From: an uncultured Chloroflexia bacterium
GTDB lineage: Bacteria; Chloroflexota; Anaerolineae; JAAYZQ01
Assembly: GCA_963700285.1 (NCBI GenBank)
Contig: CAVOXA010000010.1
Span: 1,632,001-1,696,000, forward strand
Length of the DNA: 64,000 nt
Direction of reading: 5' to 3'
Numbering within the stretch: position 1 is the stretch's first letter; each line of letters starts with the position of its first letter. Shown piece after piece: positions 19,940 through 54,978 of the stretch. The position numbers and the translations under genes are program-made. Under the pieces are notes generated by a model. It did no database searches. It saw only the letters and a program-made list of their open reading frames with translations, and was not told the origin of the DNA.

Positions 19940-21178
19940 ATGGCGTGGTTTCGCTTGATCGCTGGACTGTTTATCCTAGGCTGGGCCCTCCTCCCCCTAC
20001 CGGGCTCGGTCCCGAAAGCACGCCTGGGCCGTGCAGCCACGCCCCCAAAACTTGAGCAGTACTGCTCCGACGGTAGCGCGCGGCCTATCTCGACAGCCGA
20101 TCCCCTCATCTCTGACGTCCTGGTGACCAACCGTCGGGATGTTGCTTTCACCGTTACCTGGCGCACCGACGCGGCCAGCACAGGCCGGATCGAGTTTGGG
20201 GAAACCCCGAGCCTGGGTCAGGTGGCCTACGACGACCGGGGCGAGGACGTTGCCTCCAGGGTGCATCATGTGACCCTCACCCGGCTGACACCGGATACGA
20301 CTTACTACTACCGCGTGCATGCTGGCGGTGCGATCTCCCCTGCCGAGGGAGAGCCATACCAAGCCACGACGCTGCCGACGGGCGTACCACCTGTACCCTT
20401 TTTGGCCTATGGTCAGGTGAAAACGTCAGGCGGAGATCCAGCCGAGGGTGCGCTGGTACGAGTCCGGCTGTTGGACGCGGGTGGGGGACAATCAGAGCCG
20501 TTGTCCAAGTTGGTGGATAGTTATGGTTATTGGTCGCTGAACCTCCCCTTGGCAAGCTGCAGCGGCGTGCAACTGCAGCTTGCAGCCTTCGGCGCCGAAG
20601 GGGGTGTTGCCGAGCTGACCCACGCAGCTTGTGACCTCCGGCCGGCGCCGGCCATGGTGCTGGTGGATGGGTACGAGGTCGCGGTGACGGTAGTAGGCCA
20701 AGGCCGGGTGGAGCACAGGCCAGGCAATCCTTACCAAGCTGGCCAGAAGGCGAGGCTGGAGCCGATCGCTGACCCTGGATGGGCCTTTGCCGGGTGGAGC
20801 GGCCCGGATGCCGGAGACCTGGAGGATCAGGGCGATGGCACCTGGTCGCTGACAGTGGATGACGACAAGGCAGTCACGGCCACCTTTGCCGAAGGACTAT
20901 ACGAGGTGACGGTGACGGTAGTGGGCCAAGGCCGGGTGGAGCATCGGCCAGGCAATCCCTACCGAGCCGGCCAGGAAGCAACGTTGGAGCCTATCCCTGA
21001 CCCAGGGTGGGCCTTTGCCGAGTGGAGTGGTCCGGATGCCGGGGAGCTGGAGGACAATGGCGATGGCACCTGGTCCCTGCCAGTGGATGGAGACAAGGCA
21101 GTCACGGCAATTTTTGGGCGGGATGAGTACTCCTTTGACATCTATTTGCCATTGATCGGGCGAGAGGATCAGCGATGA
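19940..21178 (+). CDS. Secreted protein: FN3-like + Ig-like module, two InlB-B-like repeats, YLP tail
   Basis: GGAG RBS, signal peptide, ISDVLVTNRRDVAFTVTW module, two 76-aa repeats, tail IYLPLIGREDQR. Confidence 0.8.
   Translation: MAWFRLIAGLFILGWALLPLPGSVPKARLGRAATPPKLEQYCSDGSARPISTADPLISDVLVTNRRDVAFTVTWRTDAASTGRIEFGETPSLGQVAYDDRGEDVASRVHHVTLTRLTPDTTYYYRVHAGGAISPAEGEPYQATTLPTGVPPVPFLAYGQVKTSGGDPAEGALVRVRLLDAGGGQSEPLSKLVDSYGYWSLNLPLASCSGVQLQLAAFGAEGGVAELTHAACDLRPAPAMVLVDGYEVAVTVVGQGRVEHRPGNPYQAGQKARLEPIADPGWAFAGWSGPDAGDLEDQGDGTWSLTVDDDKAVTATFAEGLYEVTVTVVGQGRVEHRPGNPYRAGQEATLEPIPDPGWAFAEWSGPDAGELEDNGDGTWSLPVDGDKAVTAIFGRDEYSFDIYLPLIGREDQR
20672..21118 (+). repeat. Two tandem 228-bp coding repeats (divergent InlB B-repeat-like)
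   Basis: YEV(A/T)VTVVGQGRVEHRPGNPY...GDGTWSL...KAVTA at 20672 and 20900. Confidence 0.9.
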
Positions 21179-21606
21179 GGTGCAGCAATCCCGAGGTGCA
21201 AGGGGTAGAAGATCTGGTCGGTCCACGCGGACGGACCGCACTGGTGTACCCATCCCGGTCAGCCGTCTACCTGGCCGTCTTGGTACCTTCCAAGACGGCC
21301 GATGACCAGCCAGTTGTGGATGCGCTGGGCCGGGTGTGGCTGGCGAATGAGGGGCATGTACTGAGCGGGGCCAAAGCGGGCAAGGCCTCAGAGCCACTGT
21401 CGACGTTGGTCGACGGCTATGGCTACTGGTCCATGAACCTGCCGGTGGCGGCTTGTGACGACCTAACCCTCAAGCTGCAGGCCATCGGCCGCAGGGGCAG
21501 CGAGGCGGAGCTGATCCAGTCGGCGTGCGAAATTAGGCCGGCGCCGACGGTGATGCTGTCGGAGGAGGGGCCTATCAGCATCTATCTGCCGTTGATCACC
21601 CGTTGA
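21175..21606 (+). pseudogene. Orphan, 5'-degenerate copy of the last domain of the shared C-terminal cassette
   Basis: SEPLSTLVDGYGYWSMNLP...CEIRPAP...IYLPLITR is intact; the upstream part is eroded (KTADDQPVVDALGRVWL vs ETADGQPAVGALVRVWL); no signal peptide. Confidence 0.65.
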
Positions 21607-21828
21607 GGCCTCATTGTATGCCAATGGGTGGGTGGGGGAGTGGGCAGAGGAAGGCCATGAGGTTTAAAAGGGTCGGAGGCCCGGAGGCTGGGGTTCAGAC
21701 CGTCTCTGAGGTCGTGGAGAGCTCAGGATGATCGTACCAGATGCCAGAGGATGCCCAACATCGTGCTTATTAGAATTGAGGCCATCCTGTACGTCATGTT
21801 GGAGAATCGACAGGGAGGAGCTTGTGAA

Positions 21829-24800: not shown

Positions 24801-25917
24801 AGGAACTCAGGGCGGAGACGCTGACCTGGTGGCCCGCTGGCTCAGTGACAGCGATGTCTGGGAGAGCCATGCCAAGACACGACCATACAACAACTATTTG
24901 CTAGAGCTGGGTCAGGGTTACTTTGTCCGGGCCGCCGTAGCCAGTACCTGGGTACGCACGGGTCCCCCTCCTGCCGATCCAGCCCCGATGGATCTCGAAC
25001 CCATGTGGGCGCTAATCGGAATCCCCAAGCTGCCGGGTCCAATGACGGCCGCCGATCTGCTCGCCGAGGCCACAGCTCAGGGGGGCGCGTGCACAGAGAT
25101 CGACCGCTGGGATCAGCCTACCCAGACGTATGAATCTTTCGACAGCGGGATGCCCGGCACAGGCTTTGACCTGACGGAGGACGAAGGCTACTTTGTCAAG
25201 TGCGCCAACGCTATCACCTACACGCCTGGCGGAAGCGGCGCGCTGCAGCGGCCACCGTCGACCCAGGAGATCCCGGTGGGGCTGCCCGTACTGGAACCGG
25301 TCGCGGACCCGGCCATTTCTGACGTGCTGGTCACCAACCGCCGCGACGTGGCCCTCAGCATCACTTGGCGCACCGACCAGCCGAGCACCGGCTGGGTCGA
25401 GTATGGGGAAAAGACGGCCCTGGGCCAGACGGCCCACGACGACCTGGGCGAGGGGACCGTCTCACAGGTACACCACGTCACCCTCACCCGCCTGACACCC
25501 GAGACCACCTACTACTTCCGCGTGCATTCTGGAGAGACCGCAGACGATAACGACGGGGCGCTCTACAAGGTCACCACCAAGGAGACCGGCATGCCGCCCG
25601 TGCCGTACCTGGCCTATGGACAGGTGGAGACCGCTGACGGCCAGCCGGCGGCGGGGGCGCTGGTGCGGGTCTGGCTGGTGGATAAGGATGACAAGTCGTC
25701 TGAGCCGCTGTCGACGCTGGTCGACGGTTATGGCTATTGGTCGATGAGTCTACCCGTGGACCGGTGCAAGGACCTGGATGTGAGGTTGCAGGCCATTGGC
25801 CGGCAGGGCAGCGAGGCGGAGCTGACCCAGTCCGCGTGCGAGGTCAAGCCAGCGCCAACGGTCAAGCTGTCGGAAGAAGGGCCACTCAAGATCTACCTGC
25901 CTCTGATATTGCGTTAG
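21829..25917 (+). CDS. Large secreted C39-like cysteine peptidase with FN3, PPC and sugar-binding-like domains plus the shared C-terminal cassette (frameshifts ~22365, ~23210)
   Basis: GGAGG RBS; signal peptide; WSFGCSATSAAM (Cys), EIDAGRPVMIHVVGHTMV (His), HDTW; HEPND...DVDYY and YEPDD...DEDWV PPC-type domains; cassette from 24721; tail IYLPLILR. Confidence 0.78.
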
Positions 25918-26259: not shown

Positions 26260-29085
26260 TTGGAGCTTCGCGGTTTGATGGTCCTGATTTGCCTGCTACT
26301 TGCCTTCCCGGTTCCGTCACTGGCGGCGGATGGTGAAGAAGAGCAGCGGCATGTCACGGCCGCTGCTCCCAGCGCGCCGGTGATCTCGGTCTGGTACGGG
26401 AGTCCTCAGACCTTTGGGACGCTGGGCGACCCTCAGCGACAGATCAATATCCTGGGCAACGTCAGTGGGGCCAGCACCTTGCACTATTCGCTGAACGGCG
26501 GCCCGGACATCGAACTGGCCATGGGTGGCGGGGGATCGGCAGCAGCGCTGGACGGGAGACACGGATCCTTCCAACCAGACGAGGGGGAGGACAGCATCAG
26601 CGTCCGGGGAGCATTGGGCGATCCGGGGCCGATGGCTCCTGCAGTGGCTGCCGCTCTGCTGGTCACCGACAGCCCCCGGCTGGTATCTGATGGAGATTTC
26701 AACATCGAGATCGACACTGGGGATCTCGAAGACGGCCAGAATACCGTGGCCATCAAGGCCAATGGTGACCAGACTATTGAGACCGTCACGGTAGACTATG
26801 CGGCAGGCAACGCCTGGCCGTTGCCCTACAGCATCGATTGGAGCGCCACCCCTGACATCCGCAGCGCCGTACAGGTGGTGGATGGCCAATGGGCCAAAGA
26901 TGGGGACAACATCCGCACCCAATCCACCGGGTACGACCGGATCGTGGCTCTGGGGGATATGGGCTGGGACGACTTTCAGGTGACGGTACCGGTCACCATC
27001 CACGACTTTCCCGATCCCAACGCCGGCGGCGTGGGCATTGTGGCCCGCTGGCAGGGTCACTTTCAGATCGACGATGAGCAGCCAGGCCGGGGCTGGTGGC
27101 AGATCGGGGCCTATGCATTCTACCGGAATCGGGACGCGCAGAACGGCGGTGCCGCGCTGTCCATCTTTACCGGACACTATGATCTCGAGAGGGACCAGAG
27201 CGGCTACGAGGTGCCCCTGAACACGCCCCACTATTTCAAGCTGCGCGCCCAGACCAAGGTCCCGGGCCAGAGCGGCTTCTACAGCTTCAAGGCGTGGGAG
27301 GTGGGCACGGCCGAGCCAGAGACGTGGACCTTTGAGATACAGGATGCTCCGCCCGACGAGATGTTCAACGGCTCCGCCCTGCTGGTGGCCCACGAGGCGG
27401 ACGCCAGCTTTGGCGACGTCGAGATCCTGCCGGTTCTCGACGTCGACGTAACCACCGTTGGCGATGGCTCGGTTCAGGTTGACCCAGAATTGACCGGCAT
27501 CTCCGACGCATACCTCTATGGCGACGCCATCGAGCTGGCGGCCACCGCCGATCCGGGCTGGATCTTTGCTGGCTGGAGCGGCAGCCTGTCCGGCGCAGAC
27601 AATCCGGCTTCCCTCACACTGGTCGACGACGCGGCCATCACGGCTACCTTTGTGCCGGATGACAGCGTTAGCCTGGTTGTTGGCATCACGGGCAGCGGCG
27701 ACGTGGCTCTCAACCCTGCCGGCGGGCTGTACGCCCCTGGCACGGTTGTCATACTGGAGCCCCAGCCCGAACCAGGCTGGCAGTTCGCCGGCTGGACCGG
27801 TGACGACGCGGCTGACCTGGTTAACCGGGGCGATGGCACCTGGGAAATCACCATGGACGCCGACAAGTCGGTCACCGCTCAATTTGGCATCGCCCATACC
27901 CTATTGACCGGTCTCAACCTGCTGGCGCCCAGGCTGGAGACCGACCCGCCGACCACCGCCGAAATGGCCCTGGATCAAATCCAGGCGCAGGGGGGCAGTG
28001 TTGGCATGTCATGCCTCTGGCAGAGCATGGCCGACCGGTGGGAATGCCATGCCAAGGAGCAGCCCTTCAACAACTTTGTCCTGGCTCCAGGACAGGGCTA
28101 CGCCTTCCTGGCCAATACAGGCAGCACCTGGACGCGCACCGGCACTCCGGTCGACAGCCCTGTGCCAGTCCAACTCGACCCTGTCTGGACCCTGCTGGGC
28201 CTGCCCAACCTGGGCGGACTTACCACGGCGGAAGATCTGCTGAATGATGCCAACGCCCAGGGTGGCGCCTGCACCGAAGTACACCGCTGGGCCGACGGCT
28301 GGTGGGACGGGCACGCCGCCGGCACGGGTCCGGGATTTGACCTGAGTAACGACCAGGGCTACTTTTTGAAATGCGCCAACACCATCACCTACACGCCGGG
28401 AGGCAGTGGATCGGCAGCCCGGGCAGCCGGCTGGCCGGACCCCGCGGAGCCAGAGGTCCTGGCGCCCGCCCCCGGCCCGGTCATCTCTGACGTGCAGGTC
28501 ACCAACCACCGCGACGTGGCGCTCAGCATCACCTGGCGGACGGAGCAGCCCAGCACCGGCTGGGTGGAGTACGGCGACACCCCAACCCTGGGCCAGACGG
28601 CTTACGACGACCTGGGCGAAAGGACCGTCTCGCAGGCGCACCAGGTCACGCTGACCGGGCTGACACCCGAGACCACCTACGACTTCCGCGTCCATTCCGG
28701 AGAGACGGTGGACGACAACGATGGGGCGCTCTACCAGGTCACCACAAAGGAGACCGGCATGCCGCCGGTTCCCGACCTGGCCCACGGTCAGGTTGAGACG
28801 GCCGATGGTCAGCCAGCCGTAGGCGCCTTGGTGCGGATTTGGTTGGTGGATGGGGACGGTAATCCGTCAGAGCCGCTGTCGACCTTGGTGGACGGCTATG
28901 GCTACTGGTCCCTCAACCTCCCGGTACAGGCGTGCAAGGACCTGGAGGTCAAGCTGCAGATTACCGGTCGCCAGGGCGGCGAGGCGTCGATGACCGTGCC
29001 GGGCTGCGAGGTCAAGCCCGCGCCCGCCGTCAAGCTGCCGGAGGAAGGACCTCTCAAGATCTACTTGCCACTGGTAGCGCGCTAG
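26260..29085 (+). CDS. Secreted protein: ConA/lectin-like beta-sandwich, two InlB-B-like repeats, shared C-terminal cassette
   Basis: Signal peptide; GDMGWDDFQVTV...GVGIVARW...FKAWEVGTAEPETW; GWIFAGWSG repeats; cassette from 27895; tail IYLPLVAR. Confidence 0.8.
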   Translation: MELRGLMVLICLLLAFPVPSLAADGEEEQRHVTAAAPSAPVISVWYGSPQTFGTLGDPQRQINILGNVSGASTLHYSLNGGPDIELAMGGGGSAAALDGRHGSFQPDEGEDSISVRGALGDPGPMAPAVAAALLVTDSPRLVSDGDFNIEIDTGDLEDGQNTVAIKANGDQTIETVTVDYAAGNAWPLPYSIDWSATPDIRSAVQVVDGQWAKDGDNIRTQSTGYDRIVALGDMGWDDFQVTVPVTIHDFPDPNAGGVGIVARWQGHFQIDDEQPGRGWWQIGAYAFYRNRDAQNGGAALSIFTGHYDLERDQSGYEVPLNTPHYFKLRAQTKVPGQSGFYSFKAWEVGTAEPETWTFEIQDAPPDEMFNGSALLVAHEADASFGDVEILPVLDVDVTTVGDGSVQVDPELTGISDAYLYGDAIELAATADPGWIFAGWSGSLSGADNPASLTLVDDAAITATFVPDDSVSLVVGITGSGDVALNPAGGLYAPGTVVILEPQPEPGWQFAGWTGDDAADLVNRGDGTWEITMDADKSVTAQFGIAHTLLTGLNLLAPRLETDPPTTAEMALDQIQAQGGSVGMSCLWQSMADRWECHAKEQPFNNFVLAPGQGYAFLANTGSTWTRTGTPVDSPVPVQLDPVWTLLGLPNLGGLTTAEDLLNDANAQGGACTEVHRWADGWWDGHAAGTGPGFDLSNDQGYFLKCANTITYTPGGSGSAARAAGWPDPAEPEVLAPAPGPVISDVQVTNHRDVALSITWRTEQPSTGWVEYGDTPTLGQTAYDDLGERTVSQAHQVTLTGLTPETTYDFRVHSGETVDDNDGALYQVTTKETGMPPVPDLAHGQVETADGQPAVGALVRIWLVDGDGNPSEPLSTLVDGYGYWSLNLPVQACKDLEVKLQITGRQGGEASMTVPGCEVKPAPAVKLPEEGPLKIYLPLVAR

Positions 29086-32400: not shown

Positions 32401-34874
32401 CCACCCGCCACCCCTGGACCCGGTTCGAGGGCTGGGACCAGGCTCCCTATCTGGCGGCGCTGGATGGCGGCAGGCTGGCGCTGGTCTGGGAATCAGAGCG
32501 CAGTGAGAATGACGACATCTGGTTCGGCATCTTGGGGGAACGCGAGGATCTCAACCCACCGCCCAAAGTGAAAAGGTTGGAGCACGAGCCCGCCGGCCCG
32601 GCGCCAGGCGAGGTGGTGACCTTCCGGGCCTATGCCGAGGACGAGACGGCGGTGGACACCGTCCACCTGGTCTGGGAGCTCAACGGCGCCCCGCAAGCAG
32701 ACGTGGAGATGTACGACGACGGCGCGCACAACGACTATGGCGCTGGCGATGGCTGGTATGGGGTGCAGGCGGGCCCCTTTGCCCTGGATGATGAAGTGAG
32801 CTATTCCGCCCGGGCCAGCGACGGGGACGGCAATACCTACACCCGCCCCTGGTGGGAAAGCTTCTTGGTCGTCGAGCCCTTTGTCAAAACGGCGGATCTG
32901 CTGTTCATACCGGACTATGACGGCGAGAGCACGGACTGGTTCCGGACCTACTTTACGGATGCCCTGGACGATCTGGGCCGCGACTATGACCTGTGGGACA
33001 CGGGGCTGCGAGGCGCGCCGGGTGGCCCCACCCTGAACCAGTACGTGGATGGGGTCGTGATCTGGGCCGCCCCGGACTGGGGCTTCTTCCGCGAGAACGA
33101 CGTCCAGGATGATCTGGCAGCCTACCTGGATGCCGGGGGCAGGCTATTCATCACCGGCCAGGATATCGGCTACTATGAAGGCCTGTCAGCCTTCTACCAG
33201 AACTACCTCCATGCCACCTATGTCCAGGACGATACCAATCTCTATGCCCTGAGCGGACAGGCTGGTGACCCTGTCGGCGACGGGCTGGCACTGTCCATTT
33301 CCGGTGGGGACGGGGCGGACAACCAGGATTCGCCGGACGAGATCGACCCTGTCAGCCCGGCTGTGACGGTCCTGACCTACGACAGCACGGCGCTGCAGGC
33401 CCGTGATGCAGTAGAGGAGACCCGGCCAGACCCGCCCGAGGATCGGCCTGAACCTCGCGGGGCAAGAAGGGACGATGGACGACCGCAGTCAAGGGCCGCG
33501 TCCGCCGGAAGCGCCAGCCCGCTGGAGAACATCTCCTCGGGGACGGCGGGCCTGCGGGTGGATACCGGCATCTACAGGGTCGTCTACTTTTCCTTCGGCT
33601 TTGAAGCCATCAACAGCGCCGCAGACCGCAACACGACCATGGAGCGGGTGCTGGACTGGCTCGGCGTCTGTGAGGCTTCTCACAGCCTGGCACCGGACTG
33701 GACGCTGCTGGCGCCCAACGTGGATACCGATCCCGCCACCGATGCCGAGGCGGCCCGGTCCGAGGTCGCCGCCCAGGGGGGCAACGCCCTGCAACTGTGC
33801 GCCTGGCTCGGCGGCACCCAGAACTGGCTGTGCTACGATGGGGATCCGCCGGGCAACAACTTTCCCATCGAGTTGGGACAGGGCTACTTTTTCCAGGTGG
33901 ACACGGCCAGCACCTGGCAGCGCACGGGGCAGGCCCCGGGCAGCCCCGTGCCGGTGGACATCAGGCCCACCTGGAGCCTCGTAGGTATCCCCAGGTTGCC
34001 GGGGCTCATGACGGCCGAGGACCTGCTGGACGAGGCCACGGGCCAGGGTGGGGCCTGCACCGAGCTGTACCGCTGGCAGGCAGGCGGATGGGTGGGGCAT
34101 GCCCGGGGGCTGCCTTTCAACAACTTTGGCCTGACCAACAACGAAGGCTACTTTGCCCGGTGCGCGAGTGCCACGACCTACATACCCGGCGCGGCCGCCA
34201 CACAGGCCCAGCCAGAGAGCTGGCCTGCAATGGTGGAGCAAGAGACCCTGGCGCCGGTCGCCGATCCCACCATCTCCGATATCCAGGTCACCAACCGTCG
34301 CGACGTGGCCCTGACCATCACCTGGCTCACCGACCAGCCGAGCACCGGCTGGGTGGAGTACGGCGACACCCCAGCCCTGGGCCAGACGGCTTACGACGAT
34401 AAGGGCGAGGGCACCGTCTCGCAGGCGCACCATGTCACGCTCACCGGGCTGACACCCGAGACCACCTACGACTTCCGCGTCCATTCCGGAGAGACGATAG
34501 ACGACAACGACGGGGCGCTGTACCAGGTCACGACCAGGGCGACGGAGCTGCCGCCCACGCCCTACCTGGCCTACGGGCGGGTGGAGACGGCTGAGGGTGC
34601 TCCGGCAGTAGGGGCGCTGGTGCGGGTGTGGTTGGTGGATGAGGCAGGCAACGAGGCCGAGCCAGTATCGGCCCTGGTTGATGGCTATGGCTATTGGTCC
34701 CTCAGTCTGCCAGTGGACCGGTGCAAGGATCTGCAGGTCAAGCTGCAGGTTACCGGCCGACAGGGCAGCAGTGCGGAGATCACCCAGCCGGCGTGCGAGG
34801 TCAAGCCGGCCCCAACGGTGGTCGCTGGGGTGAAGGGCGGCGCGGGTGTGTACCTGCCCATCGTGATGCGGTAG
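29474..34874 (+). CDS. Large secreted protein: 2x [BNR/Asp-box propeller + MYDDG Ig-like + alpha/beta domain] plus the shared cassette (frameshift ~31375; compensated shift ~31990-32095)
   Basis: AAGGAGG RBS; signal peptide; many TSxDxGxTWS Asp-boxes; VEMYDDGAHGDYGAGDGWYG; YLDAGGRLFITGQDIG...VYFSFGFEAI; cassette from 33681; tail VYLPIVMR. Confidence 0.82.
29615..33660 (+). repeat. Tandem direct repeat, two highly similar ~2.04-kb units (starts 29615 and 31656); partial third copy at ~38220-39352
   Basis: Long identical stretches, e.g. GACTACGATCCCGCCCTGGTCCAGGCGGCCGATGGCACGTTGCTGGCCGTGTGGTATTCCTAC in both units. Confidence 0.92.
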
Positions 34875-37900: not shown

Positions 37901-40626
37901 GAGCATATGGACTGGCCTACAGTGCGACCGCGAACGGAGGCCAGGACTGGACACCGCCGGCGTTTCTGGATGCAGGCGGGCCCATCGGCTCACCGAGCAT
38001 CCGGCGCGCTGTCGATGGCACCCTATGGCTCGCCTACAAGGTCGTGTACCTCATGGCCGATCGATGGCGCTCGCACATCTACTACCAGACCAGCACTGAC
38101 AACGGGAGTACCTGGTCCGGGCCACAACAGTACACCTACTTTGTCGGAGACAACAGCGGCCCGGCATTGGCCCCCATGGACACGCGCATGGGCCTGGCCT
38201 GGGATTCCACCCGGGCCAACAACTATGACATCTGGTTCGGCGTGTTTGGCGAGCGCGAGGATGTCAGCCCGCCGCCGTTTGTGAGTAGCGTCGAGCGCGA
38301 GCCCACCGATCCGGCACCGGCCGAGTTGGTGACCTTCCGGGCCAGTGCAGAAGATGAGACGGCGGTGAGCAGCGTCCACCTGGTCTGGGAACTGAATGGC
38401 GCCCCGCAGGCAGACGTGGAGATGTATGACGACGGCGCCCACGGCGATGACGGCCCTGGAGACGGCCGGTATGGGGTACAACTGGGACCTTTTGCCCAGG
38501 GTGACGAAGTGAGCTATACCGTCAGGGCCGGCGATGGGGACGGCAATACCTACACCCATTCTCCGTGGGAGACGTTTCGGGCCATCGAGCCTTTTGTCAA
38601 GACGGCGAATCTTCTGTTCGTGCCGGACCGCGACGGCGAAAGCACGGACTGGCTCCGCCCCTACTTTTCTGATACCCTGGACGATCTGGGCTATGGCTAT
38701 GACGTGTGGGACACGGGGCTGCGAGGTGCACCGGATAGCCCCACCCTGAACCAGTACGTGGATGGGGTCGTGATCTGGGCCGCCCCGGACTATGGCCTCT
38801 TCCGGGAAAACGACGTACAGGATGATCTGGCAGCCTACCTGGATGCCGGGGGCAGGCTGTTTATCACCGGTCAGGACATCGGCTACTATGAAGGCGCCTC
38901 AGCCTTCTATCAGGATTACCTCCATGCCACCTACGTCCAGGACAACACCGGCATCTGGACCCTGAGCGGGACCGGCGGCGATCCCATTGGTGATGGGCTT
39001 GGCCTCACCATTTCGGGTGGAGACGGGGCGGACAATCAGGATTGGCCGGACGAGATTGACCCTGTCAGCCCGGCTGTGACTGTCTTGACCTACGACAGCA
39101 CAGCGCTGCAGGCACCCGATGCAGAAGGCGAAACCCGGCCAGAACTGTCTGGACGAACAGGGGACGATAGACGACCCTCGTCCCGTGCCGGGTCGGCCGG
39201 GACCGCCAGCCCGCTGGGAACTGCTTCCTCGGGGACCGCAGGCCTGCGGGTGGATACCGGCACCTACAAGGTCGTCTACTTTTCCTTCGGCTTTGAGGCC
39301 ATCAACAGCGCCGCCGACCGCAGCACGACCATGGAGCGGGTGTTGGACTGGCTCAGCACCGATACGGCCTCTCACAGCCTGGTGTCCGACTGGACGCTTC
39401 TGGCGCCCAACGTGGCCACCGATCCTCCCACCGATGCCCAGTCAGCCCGGTTTGAGGTGGCCGCCCAGGGGGGCAGCGCCCTGCAACTCTGCGCCTGGCT
39501 CGCGGACACCCAGAATTGGTTGTGCTACGATGGGGATCCGCCTGCCAACAACTTCCCCATCGAGCTGGGCCAGGGCTACTTCCTCCAGCTGGTCCGGGCC
39601 AGCACCTGGCAGCGCACGGGAGATGCCCCGGGCAGCCCCGTGCCGGTGGATATCAGACCTACCTGGACGCTGATGGGCATGCCCAAACTGCCGGGGCCCA
39701 TGACAGCCGAGAGCCTGCTCGACGAGGCCACGGGCCAGGGTGGGGCCTGCTCCGAACTCTATCGCTGGCAAGCCGGCGGATGGGTCGGGCACATCCGGAA
39801 TCTGCCCTTCAACGACTTTGGCCTGACCAACAATGAAGGCTACTTTGCCCGGTGCGCGAATCCTATCACCTACACGCCCGGCGCGGGTACCTCGCAGGCG
39901 CAAGCGGCTGGCTGGCCGGCCCCCGTGGAGCCGGAGGCCCTGGCTCCCATCGATGATCCTGTCCTCTCTGACGTGCTGGTGACCAACCTGCGCGACGTCG
40001 CCCTGAGCATCACCTGGCGGACAGACCAGCCCAGCACCGGTTGGGTCGAGTATGCACCGTGCCAGGACTGCCAGTCCTATCGTGCCGACGACGATCTGGG
40101 GGAGGGGACGGTTTCGCAGGTGCACCACGTGACGCTGACCGGGCTGGCGCCCGAGACCACCTACTCCTTTCGTGTGCACTCGGGCTACTCGGTGGACGAC
40201 AACGACGGGGCGCTCTATCAGGTCACGACCAAAGAGACCGGCATGCCGCCGATCCCCTACCTGGCCTACGGTCAGGTGGAGACGGTTGACGGGACGCCAG
40301 AGGCTGGCGTGCCAGCTGTGGGCGCGTTGGTACGGATGTGGCTGGTAGATGGGGATGGCAAGCCGTCCGACCCGCTGTCGACGCTGGTCGACGGCTATGG
40401 CTACTGGTCCCTGAACCTTCGTTCAGGTACGGACCTGCCCACGCAGAACTGTGACAAAGTGGCGTTGAGACTGGAGGTCGTCGGCCCAATGGGTAGCGAG
40501 GCCGGCTGGGTCCAGAATGCGTGTGATGTGCTGCCTGCATCAAGGATAATGCTACTGGGGGAGAGCACCATCCGCCTATACCTGCCCACAATCCTGCGAC
40601 CGTCTCCAAAGTCCTACAGCCGCTGA
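34969..40626 (+). CDS. 1885-aa secreted protein: CARDB, M6-like zinc metallopeptidase, BNR propeller, MYDDG and alpha/beta domains, shared cassette
   Basis: Signal peptide; LDPSNLITEVSEQNN (CARDB); LLHEMSHARYLIDLY; Asp-boxes; cassette from 39373; tail LYLPTILRPSPKSYSR. Confidence 0.85.
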   Translation: MRSSLVLLCLLVAIGLFGAESAATVHRVGSSPLVEAQVERLPSGSDPLRLWRDEDGDLWVATSFYEWNITGGDRITVFDGGQRYDWVPDPKQEASDRVVDALFLSPADGVPIAGRIVYDLSDEAVVYLERSAPDAEGLELAFRASDGIIRMTHRWRGKDAPVEVSQKPIALTMDRTSLQDLSGSFAAGRRTGARSYRHAGRYAADSGQGYSMLTAEGQTPGPLPPDEPTCPSMPNPTSPSAYDPCRFPHFFLPGAVLGSRYLYLYGAQPEAPLEPLEAVVAALQLEQPDLDALNIARLPRYDYDAAKNLPAPGDQVTFEARVANYGGQATGEFAYTWYLDGTPVMSTSRPSLAPGETATLAINWIWQPGNHTVSLELDPSNLITEVSEQNNSVEDRTNALAVGFWVEQSVYDYFNLHQVELGLGSVSWDDWAQRQLRLWNQMMADAIHPLTPQGILDRVRLDKVTVVPDGTLPNPYPSNYPETSDHTVDLMWGFPSELVGVPSTHPQYGPLYLDYPAACNFEPSLLHEMSHARYLIDLYGLNLGFSTTHLASAIDSTATTVPVDGNVEDNYGWPVPTYLAVEGELIVCQAKGTYSFTPCTRGAEGTTPRSHGEGAIVNLAAVRLQDGAGNLVMAGPDMPLVSIYDDHLYYNRYPDDLMNSGVVYEQYSAYAWNRIAGRRPICGNYNAPCNIGEYANDLPQHIILTIRDDNEQPVPDAAVEVYQAKPGTGWYAKLYLNAPDAAYQTDAQGNVDLGSFPFGSAPPIVHTYGHSNALLLLKITHGSGPEYRFFEVTVPNETYWGMLGQVSDGTGADFAPALVRAGMAELLSIWEQEGTLWTARSINWGATWSAATQLEGCCHYDPALAQLADDSLALVYRWNDDIWFRTSTDGGLNWSSPVRVTDHPALDQDPDIAPMADGSLWIVWQSLRDGHDGIWYSRSTDGGSLWSPPAEIPNDADWQGDPSIVQASDGTIWVVWFRAYGLAYSATANGGQDWTPPAFLDAGGPIGSPSIRRAVDGTLWLAYKVVYLMADRWRSHIYYQTSTDNGSTWSGPQQYTYFVGDNSGPALAPMDTRMGLAWDSTRANNYDIWFGVFGEREDVSPPPFVSSVEREPTDPAPAELVTFRASAEDETAVSSVHLVWELNGAPQADVEMYDDGAHGDDGPGDGRYGVQLGPFAQGDEVSYTVRAGDGDGNTYTHSPWETFRAIEPFVKTANLLFVPDRDGESTDWLRPYFSDTLDDLGYGYDVWDTGLRGAPDSPTLNQYVDGVVIWAAPDYGLFRENDVQDDLAAYLDAGGRLFITGQDIGYYEGASAFYQDYLHATYVQDNTGIWTLSGTGGDPIGDGLGLTISGGDGADNQDWPDEIDPVSPAVTVLTYDSTALQAPDAEGETRPELSGRTGDDRRPSSRAGSAGTASPLGTASSGTAGLRVDTGTYKVVYFSFGFEAINSAADRSTTMERVLDWLSTDTASHSLVSDWTLLAPNVATDPPTDAQSARFEVAAQGGSALQLCAWLADTQNWLCYDGDPPANNFPIELGQGYFLQLVRASTWQRTGDAPGSPVPVDIRPTWTLMGMPKLPGPMTAESLLDEATGQGGACSELYRWQAGGWVGHIRNLPFNDFGLTNNEGYFARCANPITYTPGAGTSQAQAAGWPAPVEPEALAPIDDPVLSDVLVTNLRDVALSITWRTDQPSTGWVEYAPCQDCQSYRADDDLGEGTVSQVHHVTLTGLAPETTYSFRVHSGYSVDDNDGALYQVTTKETGMPPIPYLAYGQVETVDGTPEAGVPAVGALVRMWLVDGDGKPSDPLSTLVDGYGYWSLNLRSGTDLPTQNCDKVALRLEVVGPMGSEAGWVQNACDVLPASRIMLLGESTIRLYLPTILRPSPKSYSR

Positions 40627-40634: not shown

Positions 40635-40667
40635 AGAGGACCCCGGTCAGAGCTGGCCGGGGTTCTT
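40635..40667 (+). terminator. Hairpin after the 1885-aa gene
   Basis: AGAGGACCCCGGTCAG / CTGGCCGGGGTTCTT stem with G-U pairs. Confidence 0.55.
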
Positions 40668-40761
40668 GATGGGACGCATCCCTTCGCTCCGTCGCCACCA
40701 ACTTGCTGCCTGGATCCCTCACAATCCCCTTTCGTCTGCGTGCCTAGAGATTTCCCCCAGT

Positions 40762-40789
40762 TTGACAAGGGACAGAAGGCAGCTATACT
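40762..40789 (+). promoter_or_regulatory. Putative promoter of the radical SAM gene
   Basis: TTGACA-N16-TATACT. Confidence 0.6.
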
Positions 40790-40857
40790 CTGGTCAGCTC
40801 CAGCCATCGATAACCATTCCGCAAAGCCGGGATGGTTTCGGGAAGCAGAAACAGACC

Positions 40858-42347
40858 ATGCGTATACTGACGCTGAATCCGCCTTTCCATGCCCGATACT
40901 CTCGCTCCCAGCGCAGCCCGGCTGTGGTCAAGAGTGGGGTGGTCTATTACCCCATCTGGCTGGCCTATGCCACCGGCGTGCTGGAGCAGAGTGGGTTCGA
41001 GGTCAAGCTACTGGACGCGCCGGCTGCCGGCCACGATCTGCAAGACGTGCTGCAGCTGGCGGACGAGTTCCAGCCGCGACTGGTGGTCATCGATACCAGC
41101 ACGCCCAGCATCTACAACGACGTCGAAGTGGCTGAGGCGATCAAGGGCCGCAAACCCGATACCTTCATCCTGCTGGTAGGCCCCCACGTCACGGCCCTGC
41201 CGGAGGAGAGCCTGGGCATCAGCCCCTCCATCGATGCCGTCGCCCGCGGGGAATACGACCACACGGTGCGCGATGTCGCCCGCGTGCTGGCGGGCGGCGG
41301 AGACCTGGCCACCGTTCCTGGGCTGAGCTATCGCCATCGCAGCGGCGACTGGTGCACAACCCGGACCGGCCTCCCATCCAGGACCTGGATGCCCTGCCCT
41401 TTGTCAGCGAGGTGTACAAACGCCATCTGCGCATCGAGGACTATTTCTACTCCATCGCCCGCTACCCAGAGGTGACCATCGTCACCGGCCGGGGCTGTCC
41501 CTACCGCTGCACCTACTGCCTCTGGCCGCAGACGATCACCGGCCACGAATACCGCCGCCGAAGCGTGGCCAACGTCGCCGACGAGTTCGAGTTCATCGCC
41601 CAGGCGTTTCCCCAGGCCAAAGAGATCTTTATCGAGGACGACACCCTGACCGTGGACCAGGAGCGCTGCATTGCCCTGGCCCAGGAATTGATCCAACGCG
41701 GCAACCGCCTGCCCTTCACCGCCAACTCGCGGGCCAACGTGAGCTTCGAAACCCTATCCTGGCTGAAGCGGGCCGGATTGCGCCTCCTGTGCGTCGGCTT
41801 TGAAAGCGGCGACCAAGGGGTGCTGAACGCCATGCGCAAGGGCATCAAGGTGGAGCAGTTCTACCGCTTCCGGGAGGATGCCCGGCGCGCCGGCGTGCTG
41901 GTCCACGGCTGCTTCATGGCTGGCGGCCCGGGCGAGACGCACGAGACGCTGGCCCAGACGCTGGACCTGGCCAAGGCGCTGGACCCCGATACGGCCCAGT
42001 TCTTCCCCCTGATGGTCTATCCGGGCACCGAGGCCTACGAGTGGGCCCAGCGCAGCGGCTACCTGACCACCGACGATTTTCGCCAATGGCTGACGCCTGA
42101 GGGCCTGCACCGTACCGTGGTGAGCCAGCCCGAGCTCACAGCCGAGGACCTGGTGGCCTGGTGCGACCAGGCCCGTCGCTCCTTCTACCTGCGGCCGCGC
42201 TACATCGCGGCCAAGGCATGGGAGATGGTGGCCCATCCCGCCGAAGCGGGCCGGATCCTCAGGGCGGCCCGCACCTTCATCAAGTACCTGTTACGTCCCT
42301 CACTGCGATCTGGACCAGAGGATGTGGCACAACGGAAAGCAGTCTGA
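40858..42347 (+). CDS. B12-binding radical SAM protein (HpnJ-like), frameshift ~41350
   Basis: YYPIWLAYA...DTSTPSIYND...VGPHVTALP B12-binding domain; GRGCPYRCTYCLWPQ; FIEDDTLT; VGFESG; YPGT. Confidence 0.88.
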
Positions 42348-42364: not shown

Positions 42365-44052
42365 ATGACGCGCAAACGGTTCTTGATCGGCATCTTTCGG
42401 GTCCAGGTAGCGACCATCATCTTTATGCTGCCCGCTTTCGTCCCTGTAGGGCTGGGGAACCTTGGCCTGGAGGCGCAGGGTTGTCCCCCTGTGGCCAATA
42501 CCCCCTCTTTCAGCATAGCCTACGGCCCTGTCCAACTGGATGGGGCTCAGGCCCCGGTGGGTACCATCGTCGAGGTGATCAGCCCTCGGGACGACGTGGT
42601 GGGCTGCATTGAGGTGAGTGCCGCTGGCAGCTACGGTGCCATGTACGTCTATGGTGAGGACACCTCGGTCAGCCCGCCGATACCCGGCATGAGGGCGGGC
42701 GAGACCGCTACCTTCCGCGTGGATGGGTACACGGCCACCGCCACACCCGAACTCCTGTGGCAAAATGACCGTGAACTCCACCAGATAGAGCTCACGGCCC
42801 AGACGCCGGACCCGGTCGAGATCGCGCTCTCGCCTGGCTTGAACCTGGTCCCCTGGCGGCTGGAGCCACCGCCCAACGTCCAAGGAGCCCTGGCCGAGAT
42901 CGCAGCCCAGGGTGGCCAGGCGCCAGAAGCTTACCGCTGGCTGAGCAAAGTGGACACCTGGGAGGGACACGTTCTGGGCAAGCCCTTCAACAACTTTGCG
43001 CTGGCGTTGGGCCAAAGCTATTTTGTCAAGGCCACGTCGGCCAGCACCTGGCAGCCCCCGGGGCAGCAGCCTGCCGGCCCGGTACCGGTCCAGATTGACC
43101 CCACCTGGACGCTGATCGGCCTGCCCGTTTTGCCCGGCCCGATGACGGCCCGTGGTCTGCTGGACGAGGCCACGGCTCAGGGTGGCGCGTGCACCGAGAT
43201 CTACCGCTGGGACGGCCAGGGAGACTGGGACGGCCACCTCAGTGGCCTGCCGGCGTACGACTTTGACCTGACGGATCGAGGAGGGCTACTTTCTCAAGTG
43301 TGCCAACGCCATCACCTATACGCCGGGAGCGGGTACCCAGCAGCAGGCGCCGTCTGCCCAACCGGCGCCCGTCGAGCTGGAAGCCCTGGAGCCCGTGCTC
43401 GGATCCCGTCATCTCTGACGTCCTGGTCACCAACCGTCGGGATGTGGTCTTCAGTCTCACCTGGCGCACCGACCGGCCCAGCACTGGCTGGCTGGAGTAC
43501 GCGAAAGACCTGACAGGTTTTCAAAACCTGTCAGGTCTGGGGGCACACGACGACCTGGGCGAGGGCACCGCCTCCCGGGTCCACCAGGTCACCCTCACCG
43601 GCCTGGCACCGGAGACAACCTACTACTTCCGCGTCCATTCGGGCGAGGCAGTAGACGACAACGATGGCGCACTGTACCAGGTGACCACCAGGGCCACGGA
43701 ACTGCCACCGGCACCCTTCCTGGCCTATGGGCAGGTGGAGACTTCCGAGGGTGCGCCAGCCGTGGCTACCTTGGTACGGGCCTGGCTGGTGGACAACGCA
43801 GGCGACGCGTCGGAGCCATTCTTGACTTTGGTCGACGGCTATGGTTACTGGAGCCTGAACCTGCCTATAGAGGCTTGTGAAGGGCTGCAGCTCAAGCTGG
43901 AGGCCATCGGCCAGCGGGGCAGCGATGTGCAACTGATCCAGCCGGCCTGCGAGGTGCAGCCGGCGGTCACGATTAAGCTGCCCGCAGAGAGCCCCACCGA
44001 GGAGACCCCCATGGAGACGTACCTGCCCATGATCCTGCGCGGATCTCCCTAG
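42365..44052 (+). CDS. Secreted protein: small beta domain plus the shared C-terminal cassette (frameshifts ~43275-43390)
   Basis: GAGGTG RBS; signal peptide; YGPVQLDGAQAPVGTIVEV...GSYG...PGMRAGETATFRVDG; cassette from 42821; tail TYLPMILRGSP. Confidence 0.78.
43506..43538. repeat. Perfect 33-bp REP-type palindrome inserted in-frame in a CDS
   Basis: AGACCTGACAGGTTTT-C-AAAACCTGTCAGGTCT, translated as (K)DLTGFQNLSGL. Confidence 0.92.
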
Positions 44053-44170: not shown

Positions 44171-44439
44171 GGCTCGGCACGTCCGGCTACCCTGGCCTTT
44201 TGGGTATGGTCCATGGGGTTGCGATCGTTGATGTTCCGTCGTCTCACAGTCGAGCTGGCAGGTGGATGGCGGCGCCATTCGTTTGGGCTACACTTGGCTA
44301 CCGCCCTCGTCCTCTCGGTGGCTGGCTACTGGCGGAATCCACTGCAGGCGACACCAGCCGCGGCGAACGTCCTGCCCAGAGGCCTGCTGGACGGCCCTGT
44401 CTGTTGGCAAATACCGTGATTTCTGGAGAAGCCTGCATC

Positions 44440-51297: not shown

Positions 51298-51370
51298 TTG
51301 AAAGCCAGGCAGCCCACGGTGTGCCGGAGTTGAACATAAGGATCGGCCAGTACCCGTCGGATGCCCTACC

Positions 51371-51399
51371 TTGACAACAGGTTCACCTTCAAGTAAAAT
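51371..51399 (+). promoter_or_regulatory. Putative sigma70 promoter
   Basis: TTGACA-N17-TAAAAT. Confidence 0.6.
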
Positions 51400-51480
51400 G
51401 CTGCACAGGCAGGATATACTGGGACAGGCCCCTCGATTACCCCACGCTGATACCCCAGGGTCAAAGAAAGGATGTTGTTT

Positions 51481-53281
51481 ATGAAGCAATCCACAAGTGA
51501 ACTGCGTCGCTGGCATCCGCAAAAGCTCCTTGCATCGCTTCTCATCGTGGCTTTCATTGTCGCGATAGTAGGCGTTCTTCCGCTAGAGCCTGCTGAGGTA
51601 GCAAGCGCCCAGGAGCTTGCTGATCCTGGGAGTGAGACGTCGCTCGCGGCGCAAGCTACCTGGAGCGATCCATGGCCTTTCCAACCAACATCATCCTCAT
51701 TTCCTGAATGGATCCCCGCCCATGCCGGACAAGGCAATCTGACGGCGACACTTGAGAGCAGTGTCACTGCAACGCGGGCTCCTGATGGACGCTGGTGGGG
51801 AGTCCAAATCTACGGCCAGAATCTTCGTGTCGAGAATATGGATAAGGTTGGTGCGGGCGTTGTCCGGGTGCCGCTGGAGTGGAAGACGATCGAGCCCGCA
51901 AATACCACACCAGCGAACTACCAATGGCCAGCAGAGTTTGAAGGGCAGCTTGCCCAACTAGCTGCCAGAAACATCAGGATCATTCTCACGCTCATGGGAA
52001 ATCCCTCGTGGGCAGCAACTTATGAGGCTGGACCCATCGACAAAACAGATGTCAGCGAGCTCGTGCAATTCATGGAGGCCGCCGTAGATCGCTACAGTGC
52101 GCCGCCGTACAACATCAAGTTTTGGGAGATCTACAACGAGCCCGACAATGCCCGCAAGTCTCGTGCCGCGCACGGCGGGTGGGGATACTTTCGGCGATCA
52201 ACCCGATAAATACGTCGAGGTTCTGGCCGCCCTCTACGAGCCGGTCAAGGATGTGGACCCGCAAGCCCAGATCGTATTCGGCGGCCTGGCCTATGACGGC
52301 TGGGACAATGGCTTTGTGGAGGATTTTCTGGATGATGTGCTGGCGCAGGGCGGTGGTGACTATTTTGACTTCATGAACTTTCACTACTTCACCTACTACA
52401 GAGAAATTGTGGGACCCAGCTACGGCATCGACATCATCGGCAAAACAGCGTACATTCGCGACAAGCTCGAGTCGTATGGCGTGGACAAACCCCACATCTG
52501 CAGTGAGACCTGCATGGGCAGCAACCCAGGGTTTGGCACGGAGGAACTCCAGGCCCGTTACGTTCCACAGGTCATGGCCCGCAGCGGGGAGGCCGGCTTG
52601 GATTTCACCGTCTGGTGGTGGCTCTATGACTACTCCAACATCGCCCAAGAGTGCGGCCTGCTGAGAGAGAATGGTAGTCTCAAGCCAGCCTACTATGCCT
52701 ACCAGACCCTCGCCAGTGAACTGGCCTCCACCGAGTACGTTGGCTCTATGCCGCCAGCAGATACGGGATCCGATGATATCGAGGCCTACGAGTTCGCCAC
52801 TGTGCAGGGTTCCGCCCCGGTGATCGTAGCCTGGACCAACGACGGTCTCCAGCACCAGATGCTGCTGGAGACCGAGCAGATTGTGATGGTGGACAAGTTC
52901 GGAGCCACCACGGAAATCTCCGATGATGATGATGGCAAGAATGACGGAAAGGTGACGGTTTCTGTCGGCCCGAGCCCGGTGTACCTGCGCTATCAACGCA
53001 TGTACCAGTTAGACATCGTCACTATTGGAATGGGTACGGTGAAACGACAGCCAAACCGGGCTGACTATCAGTTTGGCGAAGTGGTAACCTTGACTCCAGT
53101 TCCGAGCGCGGACTGGTCCTTTGGTCACTGGGGCGGCGTCGATGCAGAAGGTCTGGCTTTTAACGGCGATGGAACCTGGTCGCTGACCATGGATGCTGAC
53201 AGGGCACTGACCGCCATGTTCCTCCCACCCAAGGATCATGGCGCCTACCTGCCCGTGGTGTATCGGAACGCACGGCCTTGA
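51481..53281 (+). CDS. Secreted clan GH-A (GH5/GH39-like) glycoside hydrolase with InlB-B-like repeat and YLP tail (frameshift ~52190)
   Basis: WEIYNEPD, NFHYF, ICSETC, KPAYYAY; GDGTWSLTMDADRALTAMF; tail AYLPVVYRNARP. Confidence 0.82.
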
Positions 53282-53331
53282 CGATTCTGCGTTTATGACT
53301 GGAATCTGCGATTCTGAGGAGAATAGCTAGA

Positions 53332-54978
53332 GTGCGTAGGGTTCATAATTCGGTAGTGCTGTTGCTTGTCGCTGCGGTGACCGCCATATCAGCGATGATG
53401 ATAGCGGTGAAGGATCCTGCCGTGGCCATGCCAGCCAGACCGCAGGCACATCAGCATCTTGCTGTCTGGCGGACCGATAGATCCAGCAGGGATACCGATA
53501 GGCTGGCGAGTGCTCTTCCCGTATCGGACGCAAAATCCACCGCCTTCCTGCCAGCGGTCTTTGGCGGCCAAGGCTCCACGTGCTCGGTGCAGTCCCCATT
53601 CTCGCTCGAGGTTGCCGCCCTTCATCAGATTGTACCAAGCGTGGAAGGGGCATACAGTACCCATACCATGACTGATGCCGAATGGTGGGCACTGTACCAA
53701 GATGCATTTCCCTCCCTGGCGGCGGCATTGAAAGCAAGCGGAGCCTGTTGGACGCGAGTGCGAGTTGACTGGGCAATGATCCAGCCAGAGCCACCGCCAG
53801 CCGAATATGTGTGGGGGCCCTACCACGACGAGAGGTTACGGCTGGTGGCTGAAACAGGTGTGCACCAAATCGCCATTGTAGACGGTATACCCGAGTGGGC
53901 AGGCAACTCGGTCTTTGGCCCCATTGATTCTGACCGGCTGGATGAGTTCACTCAATTCCTGACTGAATTGGTCACTCGCTATAAGGAACCACCTTACGAC
54001 ATCCATCACTGGGAGTTGTTCAACGAACCTGACAGGACGACTGCAGACGGCGTTCCGGTAGGTTGGGGGTATGAGGGCGACCGCTATGCCCAGATGTTGG
54101 CCGTGGCCTACCCGGCAATCAAGGCGGCTGACCCGCAAGCGACGGTTTTGATGGGAGGCCTGGCCTATGACTGGTTCACGGAGTATCGTGGGCCATTCAA
54201 TCGTTACTTTCCAGACAAAGTGATGACGAGCGGCGGTGGCGATCACCTGGACGTTACCAGTTTCCACTACTTCCCTGACTTTTCCGCGGAATGGGAGCGC
54301 TGGGACCCGAAAAGCGAAGAGCGCCGTAACGGCTGGCTACCTGCCCCTAGCTGTGGCAAGGTGGATGATGGGCGAGGCACAGCCTACGAGGCTGGCGGCA
54401 TTGACCTAATTGCCAAGATATCTCATTTCCGGAATCGTCTAGCTACATGCTTTGGCCTGTACAAGCCAGTGTGGGTTACTGAGTTAGGGGAGCATGGCTA
54501 TGCCGGCGACTCTGACTCCCTTGCCGGGCAGGCTCGCTACGTGATCCAAGGGTATGCTCGCGGCTTGGCAGCCGGCATTCAGAATATCACGTGGTTTGCT
54601 CTCGTCTCCCCACCCTATGACCCGTACGACCAGGGGTTGCTGTTTCAAGATGACTGGTCTCCTAAGCCAAGCTACTTTGCGTACCAGACGATGACCCGCG
54701 AGTTGGCAGACCATACCTACGTGGACACGCTGGATGTGCAAGGTGTCGAAGCCTATGTCTTCCAGGACGCGGCACAGCAAGCAAAGACGGTAGCCTGGAA
54801 TCGATACCCAGGGGAATCGGCCCAGCTCACCTTTGCCGGCCACAGCCGCCTCCGTGTGGTGGATCGCAGTGGCAACGTGATGTTCGTCGAGGATGGAGGA
54901 TCAGGCGATCTGGATGGGACGGCAAACGGGAGTGTGAGCCTAAACATGACAGCCGATCCGGTTTTCGTGTCGCGATAG
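53332..54978 (+). CDS. Secreted clan GH-A (GH5/GH39-like) glycoside hydrolase
   Basis: Signal peptide; WELFNEPD, SFHYF, KPVWVTELG, KPSYFAY; N-proximal AFLPAVF motif. Confidence 0.85.
   Translation: MRRVHNSVVLLLVAAVTAISAMMIAVKDPAVAMPARPQAHQHLAVWRTDRSSRDTDRLASALPVSDAKSTAFLPAVFGGQGSTCSVQSPFSLEVAALHQIVPSVEGAYSTHTMTDAEWWALYQDAFPSLAAALKASGACWTRVRVDWAMIQPEPPPAEYVWGPYHDERLRLVAETGVHQIAIVDGIPEWAGNSVFGPIDSDRLDEFTQFLTELVTRYKEPPYDIHHWELFNEPDRTTADGVPVGWGYEGDRYAQMLAVAYPAIKAADPQATVLMGGLAYDWFTEYRGPFNRYFPDKVMTSGGGDHLDVTSFHYFPDFSAEWERWDPKSEERRNGWLPAPSCGKVDDGRGTAYEAGGIDLIAKISHFRNRLATCFGLYKPVWVTELGEHGYAGDSDSLAGQARYVIQGYARGLAAGIQNITWFALVSPPYDPYDQGLLFQDDWSPKPSYFAYQTMTRELADHTYVDTLDVQGVEAYVFQDAAQQAKTVAWNRYPGESAQLTFAGHSRLRVVDRSGNVMFVEDGGSGDLDGTANGSVSLNMTADPVFVSR

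Follow-up and report, generated by a model that had tools for sequence, protein, structure and literature searches.

The stretch analysed here (the window) comprises 64,000 nucleotides from the genome of an uncultured Chloroflexia bacterium (G000:C10:1632001-1696000) and carries nine copies of a short aromatic-Leu-Pro motif, the YLP-box. We propose, with a probability of roughly 0.78, that these nine copies are tags that match strand 1 of the ASRAH beta-sandwich repeat and would dock, uncleaved, into a gap in the first repeat of an exported ASRAH protein. The gene for this candidate receptor (G000:C10:832444-833786, also given as 832398-833786) lies outside the window and occurs in a single copy in G000; its product consists of a signal peptide and four ASRAH repeats. 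At the level of sequence, the tag is tied to exported non-lipoproteins, where it is found at either end or in loops, and it matches strand 1 of repeats 2-4, a strand that is absent in repeat 1. Structure prediction places the tail free on its own protein and docked in repeat 1 of the receptor.

The original prediction had described a recurrent motif on nine open reading frames (ORFs) of the window, and six-frame translation recovered it at all nine sites, each in the reading frame given for it. The distance to the stop codon is 7-15 residues for eight copies, and no transmembrane helix follows the motif in any of these eight, again as originally claimed. The ninth copy, at residue 72 of ORF 53332-54978, has no basic residue. 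Because a duplicated cassette precedes six of the nine tails, the window represents fewer than nine independent cases.

The following statistics are for the whole genome. In six-frame ORFs of at least 300 amino acids, the motif matched 8, 7, 14, 13 and 5 times at 7, 8, 9, 10 and 11 residues from the stop (47 in total), against a background of 0-2 matches per distance between 12 and 40 residues. Based on our own gene calls, with signal peptides assigned by our own hydrophobicity rule and not by SignalP, the terminal motif is present in 72 of 5,511 genes, compared with 15 expected from the internal rate. It was found in 42 of 518 genes with only a signal peptide, in 4 of 1,168 membrane protein genes and in 26 of the 3,825 other genes, so that the comparison with signal peptides suggested earlier shows no equal frequency in cytoplasmic proteins. 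As judged by eye, only three of the 25 high-scoring tagged genes called without a signal peptide look cytoplasmic; the other 22 are split genes or have miscalled starts. The 42 tails yield the consensus [ILAV]-[YF]-L-P-[LAI]-[IVL]-x-[RK], and a matrix constructed from them recovers 74 terminal copies in G000; since this matrix was seeded on Leu-Pro, the invariance of these two residues is partly by construction. Copies away from the C-terminus, either N-proximal or between domains, follow the same preference. At a score of at least 13, the first 120 residues contain 6 matches in 60,281 positions of exported proteins versus 5 in 438,406 positions of genes without a signal peptide, and the corresponding internal values are 7 in 159,575 versus 2 in 631,378. 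One copy is located in a loop of a YfhO-like membrane protein (family assigned by reading) with helices on both sides. The lipobox pattern is present in only 1 of 47 tagged genes, compared with 112 of 464 untagged exported genes.

The motif is already catalogued: it corresponds to the NCBIfam entries "YLP-box putative sorting motif-containing protein", NF053834 (ultrashort_CTERM) and NF050076 (sort_motif_YLP). When 20-residue snippets were searched, five of the nine sites passed NF053834 (10 bits) and two passed NF050076 (15 bits), while two sites stayed below the cut-offs and two were not reported; with whole ORFs, only one of nine was reported. Both entries describe the same motif and give a name only, without partner or mechanism, whereas the tag described here also occurs at N-proximal and internal positions and has a predicted receptor. 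A full-text search found the term "YLP-box" in no paper. No published tag mechanism or receptor was found in titles and abstract openings, a search whose coverage largely excluded subscription papers, and the donor-strand mechanism proposed below was not found in print.

The matrix of cargo tails gave an internal hit within the receptor ORF. Its structural model (predicted local distance difference test, pLDDT, 94.6) has seven listed strands in repeat 1, and an extra strand at residues 94-106 opens repeat 2. Including this opening strand, repeat 2 superimposes on residues 1-113 of TM1070 (PDB 1nc7) with Z 13.9 and a root-mean-square deviation of 2.5 Å over 106 aligned residues, and the next unrelated hit reaches Z 6.0; the match begins at the strand that opens repeat 2. 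Foldseek compared a repeat with 1nc7 at probability 1.00 and a target template modelling score of 0.71, and a profile of the receptor matches ASRT at E 5e-4. The eight-stranded beta-sandwich fold (without strand 1 in repeat 1), the Asn of strand 2 and the tetrad arrangement are common to the receptor and the ASRAH superfamily, which includes TM1070, Anabaena ASRT (PDB 2ii7) and, according to the available part of PMC2739507, amidase-fused tetrads. The conserved Asn that ends strand 2 is invariant in repeat 1 (N37) and present in at least 90% of 63 homologs in the other repeats (N141, N248, N359). The Trp found at the start of strand 1 in ASRAH proteins does not rank in the top five residues at position -1 or 0 of strand 1 in repeats 2-4. 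No NCBIfam family covers the receptor repeats in the eight proteins searched, and Pfam gave only scattered matches among the 63 homologs (DUF6385 in 15, DUF5719 in 14, CARDB in 5, ASRT in 3). The receptor is a divergent branch of ASRAH. Separately, in one genus (L197 and L198 from G172 and G215, and G253) the receptor profile matched 17-18 times in each genome, and many of these matches fall within very long proteins.

An alignment of the 63 homologs (22-84% identity, 42 rows derived from genomes) revealed how the first repeat differs from the others. Repeats 2-4 begin with a YLP-like strand, and in repeat 2 this strand has almost the consensus of the tag. Its Pro is present in 59, 62 and 61 of the 63 homologs for repeats 2, 3 and 4, respectively, and in most rows it stands 17 residues before the conserved Asn. 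Repeat 1 usually begins 12-21 residues before its own Asn, the YLP-like strand is absent in 62 of 63 homologs, and the alignment of repeat 1 with repeat 2 starts only at residue 15 of the latter. When the mature receptors were scored with the matrix derived from cargo tails only, the highest-scoring window fell on one of these opening strands in 60 of 63 homologs (39 of 42 when only the rows from genomes are counted). Median scores for repeats 2, 3 and 4 are 6.9, 4.9 and -1.0, whereas the beginning of repeat 1 has a median of -13.7 for its best window and reaches 0 or more in a single homolog (L150). An acceptor lacking one strand of its fold, as strand complementation demands, is thus found in repeat 1. 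In L150 and the related L151, repeat 1 is immediately preceded by a YLP-like strand, and in L148, L156 and L195 a peptidase-like or amidase-like region is fused to complete repeats. The genomes of four of these five proteins (L150, L151, L148, L156) have 0-2 tag hits; the genome of L195 is tag-rich, and therefore fusions and tags can coexist.

Complex prediction, which had been suggested together with the original prediction, was performed with the mature receptor and the last 33 residues of ORF 26260-29085, next to three controls. The complex scored 0.82 (runs 0.84, 0.81 and 0.82) versus 0.00 for the best control. This mark is reached by 116 of 157 solved complexes and by 2 of 215 mismatched pairs, counts that are only approximate for the alignments used here. 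The runs share at least 48% of their contacts, the pLDDT of the partner is at least 45, and the confident contacts involve tail residues 190-200 only, which are placed on repeat 1 and adjoining parts of repeat 2. The earlier idea that a short peptide attaches proteins to a component of the envelope is therefore supported and has gained a specific predicted partner, which lacks one strand in the repeat where the tail is placed.

We propose the following course of events. Cargo and receptor would both be exported by Sec, as their signal peptides suggest, and tag and receptor would meet after export. The free tag would then enter repeat 1 and complete its sandwich, and the tetrad would keep the complex on the envelope. 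The four-repeat receptor likely acts as an envelope scaffold, and we lean slightly towards its being held there as an S-layer-like (surface-layer-like) or glycan-bound layer. The receptor gene sits among glycosyltransferase-type genes and is directly followed by a lipoprotein gene (L141:7909-8499, G000:C10:833908-834498) with homologs in 20 of 68 receptor loci (E <0.1); this lipoprotein is a candidate membrane tether for the receptor. Such neighbours would suit a surface layer that is glycosylated and has a partner in the membrane. A neighborhood scan of 90 loci bearing tags or C25 peptidase genes found no receptor, and the receptor gene is unlinked to the cargos.

A more far-reaching and tentative picture is that of an enzyme-free display in filamentous Chloroflexota: an S-layer-like ASRAH lattice in which repeat 1 would serve as the open socket for dozens of enzymes, adhesins and membrane proteins, each inserting its own eight-residue strand. 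The tag would be a strand 1 split off from an ancestral fusion of cargo and tetrad, and the receptor would form the protein layer seen in cryo-tomograms of the phylum. Outer and lattice-like layers on Chloroflexota cells are described by cryo-tomography in the available parts of PMC7332563 and PMC13319060, and the accessible portion of 10.1101/2024.05.28.596244 reports that Chloroflexota possess S-layers. Amidase-fused ASRAH tetrads are described in Chloroflexi by De Souza et al. (PMC2739507, available in part), who propose wall-sugar binding from the context. In a filament fraction of Litorilinea aerophila, a 49-kDa "CARDB" protein (A0A540VDF2) ranks second by copy number (Table 2 of PMC13319060, a source available in part). 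We considered A0A540VDF2 as a receptor homolog; it is absent from the named hits and is only a lead.

Next, we compared the distribution of receptor and tags. NF053834 is noisy on whole genomes, with matches in 10 of 14 control genomes, and because of this background of 0-4 counts the line for tag-rich genomes was set at eight hits. Among 151 genomes of the phylum, a strong receptor match is present in all 14 tag-rich genomes and in 19 of the 137 others. In five receptor-negative genomes that are 98-100% complete, inspection by eye found no true tag among 15 hidden Markov model hits.

Several observations weigh against the docking reading or limit its support. In the phylogenetic profiling proposed earlier, a search of 111 genomes of the class found the receptor in only 33 of the 45 tag-rich genomes, against 51 of the 66 that are tag-poor, and its presence therefore does not discriminate in this sample. 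The misses are mostly in fragmented assemblies, and with at most 200 contigs the values are 21 of 22 and 32 of 40; a renewed search of 10 of the 12 tag-rich misses recovered one fragment, at a contig end. The most serious result concerns genus g107 (G157, G200, G241; fragmented assemblies), where the receptor was not found in any of the three genomes with three profiles, although the tags of G157 look real. The receptor was also not found in G161, which is 99% complete in 90 contigs. The receptor profile was built in part from the genomes tested, and related genomes are not independent. The complex prediction covers one tail and a partner of uncertain fold. The only solved relatives found were stand-alone ASRAH proteins, but the predictor may have copied the placement of the tail from the receptor's own repeats. 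No anchor was recognised in the receptor, which has neither a transmembrane helix nor a lipobox. Its gene ranks only 426 of 4,611 by codon bias, and its consensus promoter is not enriched in the homologs (6 of 53 versus 451 of 5,632).

Evidence on the position of the tag within proteins comes from a small exported module of G000 that ends in the tag. Among 41 longer homologs of this module, eight end in FlgD-Ig and one in a Pfam dockerin; by reading, more of them end dockerin-like or with a membrane helix. As counted by eye among the matches listed, the tag forms the end of the module at 30 of the 40 loci from Chloroflexota and at 0 of the 40 from elsewhere; the former value may be inflated because the query itself contained the tag and only the matches listed were counted. 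Based on these sequences, the tag appears to occupy an anchor slot that FlgD-Ig, dockerin-like or other modules fill elsewhere. Dockerin-like ends fill the slot in two Chloroflexia (among L048, L063, L067, L083, L092; P0038, P0041). In Sumerlaeota the slot is taken by a short end of the Trp-Leu-Tyr type and in Verrucomicrobiota by a terminal domain that is conserved; an Ile-Phe-x-Asp-Gly-Phe motif was seen as well, and these modules are possibly further docking tags. We also noted that a gene for a fibre-like protein lies on the same strand within 5 kb of the small-module gene (L001:767-3548, G000:C10:1572166-1574947) in 61 of 80 loci across phyla (L001 and L031-L110 compared); in G000 a peptidase S74 chaperone piece comes next after the fibre-like gene. 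Perhaps the small protein serves in trans as the anchor of a fibre that loses its own C-terminus by cleavage.

Other explanations of the motif have to be weighed against docking in repeat 1. Recognition by a processing enzyme was part of the original prediction. In the form considered here, a sortase, exosortase or C25 peptidase would cut the tag and link the protein covalently to a wall polymer or lipid. G000 indeed encodes five sortases, one exosortase and four C25 peptidases, the window lies among glycan genes, and C25 is present in all 14 tag-rich genomes of the phylum but in only 10 of 137 others. Sortases and exosortase were nevertheless rejected as partners, since they have their own conventional motif-plus-helix substrates, some next to the enzyme gene; the single exosortase adjoins a gene ending in a helix and basic cluster. 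The tails lack the Thr-Gly and the following helix of LPXTG signals, whose true substrates exist separately in G000, as well as the transmembrane helix and basic cluster of PEP-CTERM. The PorU/gingipain-like C25 peptidase was found in 35 of 45 tag-rich and 40 of 66 tag-poor class genomes. It was not found in 10 of the 45, including the single-contig genome G162 with real-looking tags, and is better read as cargo. Eight of the 42 tails end in the basic residue itself, so that nothing remains to be removed behind it, and cleavage of N-proximal or loop copies would detach the cargo or break it in two. Clusters of tagged genes within 25 kb of a sugar transferase number only 5 of 49. We thus regard recognition by a processing enzyme as very improbable. 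As a separate observation on C25, three of its genes in G000 (L008, G000:C7:24077-38774) stand beside radical-SAM-like and small accessory genes, an arrangement seen in 4-6 of the C25 loci fetched.

Similarly poor odds attach to the idea that the tag has no protein partner and, as a short hydrophobic peptide, either enters an outer layer of lipid or wax-like material or adheres to other tags, its likeness to ASRAH reflecting origin only. Hydrophobic residues fill six or seven of the eight positions of the tag, g107 genomes are tagged with no receptor detected, and the chemistry of the outer layer is not established in the available parts of PMC7332563 and PMC13319060. The fixed register of aromatic residue, Leu and Pro, allowing for the Leu-Pro seeding mentioned above, suits a pocket and not bulk partitioning. 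Moreover, eight residues would be a weak lipid anchor for a cargo of 100-200 kDa, and this idea leaves unexplained both why repeat 1 misses exactly this strand and why tags and receptor are jointly absent in five genomes. Least probable of all is that the tail forms the last strand of each cargo's own fold, as the shared cassette before six of the nine window tails might suggest: in the cassette model both domains fold (pLDDT 66-91 in most 10-residue blocks) whereas the last block, the tail, is disordered (pLDDT 29), three cassette copies end without the tag, another continues into other repeats, and the tag follows many unrelated domains. Improbable, yet closer to our own proposal, is a receptor that binds the tag in the same open repeat but serves as a transient carrier or chaperone through the outer layers and not as a lasting scaffold. 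The docking evidence from sequence and model fits lasting and transient binding equally well, the receptor has no membrane anchor of its own, and FlgD-Ig, a secretion-type C-terminal domain, fills the same slot in other phyla. A tag in a loop between membrane helices, however, cannot be carried outward, and the near absence of the lipobox pattern among tagged proteins also argues against a carrier. Enzymes permanently fused to complete repeats, including the amidase fusions in the available part of PMC2739507, suggest an anchoring module.

The individual copies in the window, all on the plus strand, differ in context and score (bits for 20-residue snippets). The first (21140..21163; NF053834 14.8 bits) lies near the C-terminus of ORF 19853-21178, which encodes a signal peptide, the cassette and two InlB-B-like repeats. 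It is followed by the copy at 21580..21603 (NF053834 17.5 bits, NF050076 16.1 bits), which ends ORF 21175-21606, a 143-residue cassette fragment without a signal peptide. The copy at 25891..25914 (NF053834 14.0 bits) ends ORF 23212-25917, which encodes PPC domains and the cassette, has a disordered tail in the model and is probably the last part of a split gene starting near 21751. The tail used for complex prediction is that of ORF 26260-29085 (29059..29082; NF053834 14.7 bits, NF050076 16.7 bits). ORF 31524-34874, with a BNR propeller, choice-of-anchor X and the cassette, ends in the copy at 34848..34871 (NF050076 13.7 bits, below the cut-off), and its signal peptide is found in the upstream piece 29474-31405. 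Fifteen residues from the end of the 1,885-residue ORF 34969-40626 (CARDB, BNR, cassette), the copy at 40576..40599 had no NCBIfam report and scores 21.7 with the cargo matrix, to whose training set this tail belonged. The copy at 44017..44040 (NF053834 12.8 bits) lies near the end of ORF 43300-44052, whose signal peptide is in an upstream piece that begins near 42365. The copy at 53243..53266 (NF053834 7.1 bits, below the cut-off), close to the end of ORF 52097-53281, belongs to the downstream piece of a split glycoside-hydrolase-like gene followed by an InlB-B-like repeat, with the signal peptide in 51472-52209. The variant without the basic residue (53542..53565; cargo matrix 13.2, no NCBIfam report) is located in an N-proximal linker after the signal peptide of the glycoside hydrolase family 5-like ORF 53332-54978, and a paralog at G000:C10:546037-544400 carries a tag in the equivalent place.

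Only four of the nine ORFs (19853, 26260, 34969, 53332) themselves include a signal peptide, and four others are downstream pieces of frame-split genes (23212, 31524, 43300, 52097). Frame-split genes were found at 17659-19490, 21751-25917, 29474-34874, 40666-42347, 42365-44052 and 51472-53281 of the window; the first is 96-99% identical to an intact paralog (G000:C14:297841-295931), and the frame changes are likely assembly indels. A representative copy of the duplicated cassette (28483..29049, plus strand) consists of a fibronectin-III-like domain and a second beta domain, and a sequence search of the PDB with the cassette gave only weak fibronectin-III hits. The cassette is a passenger outside the tag. 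Its tagless copies are in L002 and L009 (G000:C14:311616-298015 and C22:228779-223389) and at C10:1698062-1698532, one of them in a protein of 4,500 residues.

At 51472-54978, two neighboring glycoside-hydrolase-like paralogs carry their tags at opposite ends, C-terminal and N-proximal. Between 40666 and 60000, tagged genes are interleaved with a surface-glycan locus; besides glycosyltransferases, this locus encodes an O-antigen-ligase-like protein (44200-46386), a sugar transferase (57459-58157) and a flippase resembling MurJ (58315-59823). A general tie of tags to glycan loci was rejected: a sugar transferase is found within 25 kb for 10 of 74 tagged genes and for 25 of 464 controls, but by cluster only for the 5 of 49 mentioned above. 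Transposase-like reading frames, recognised by reading, are located at 15447-17111, just upstream of the cluster of exported proteins.

The proposed system shares features with several known ones. Cellulosomes dock their enzymes via dockerin and cohesin, the dockerin being a folded, calcium-binding domain of about 70 residues. Like the tag, this pair attaches many exported enzymes non-covalently to a scaffold, and dockerin-like domains fill the slot of the tag in other phyla; the tag, in contrast, has only eight residues, is unfolded alone and would join the core of its receptor. LPXTG with sortase, PEP-CTERM with exosortase and the C-terminal domain of the type IX secretion system with PorU are C-terminal sorting signals processed by enzymes. 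They resemble the tag in being short, portable, mostly C-terminal and carried by signal-peptide proteins, but neither helix nor basic tail follows the tag, it also occurs away from the C-terminus, and the enzymes tested are accounted for or dispensable. Donor-strand complementation, in which one chain lends a strand that completes the beta-sandwich of a second chain, as predicted here, is known from chaperone-usher and type V pili. The same principle is described for PilX-PilY1 tip complexes in the available part of PMC13190605. These systems build filaments or one fixed tip pair, whereas here one acceptor would serve about 70 unrelated cargos by way of a portable tag. Compared with the amidase-fused tetrads in the accessible part of PMC2739507, the receptor stands alone, and its first repeat is incomplete and predicted to be completed by a peptide. 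On the predicted model, the system works like dockerin-cohesin docking by means of pilus-type strand complementation and is a member of neither.

How Chloroflexota retain proteins on their layered envelope, and what the layers are made of, is an open question as presented in the available parts of PMC7332563 and PMC13319060. With a named tag and a named receptor, the proposal can be examined using one peptide and one domain of 100 residues. If the proposal is true, it would give a mechanism to an orphan NCBIfam motif and a candidate envelope protein to much of a phylum, and it would make strand complementation a general address label and not a means of filament building. Dozens of enzymes would be hung on the cell surface without an anchoring enzyme, by what would be a natural pair of short tag and catcher.

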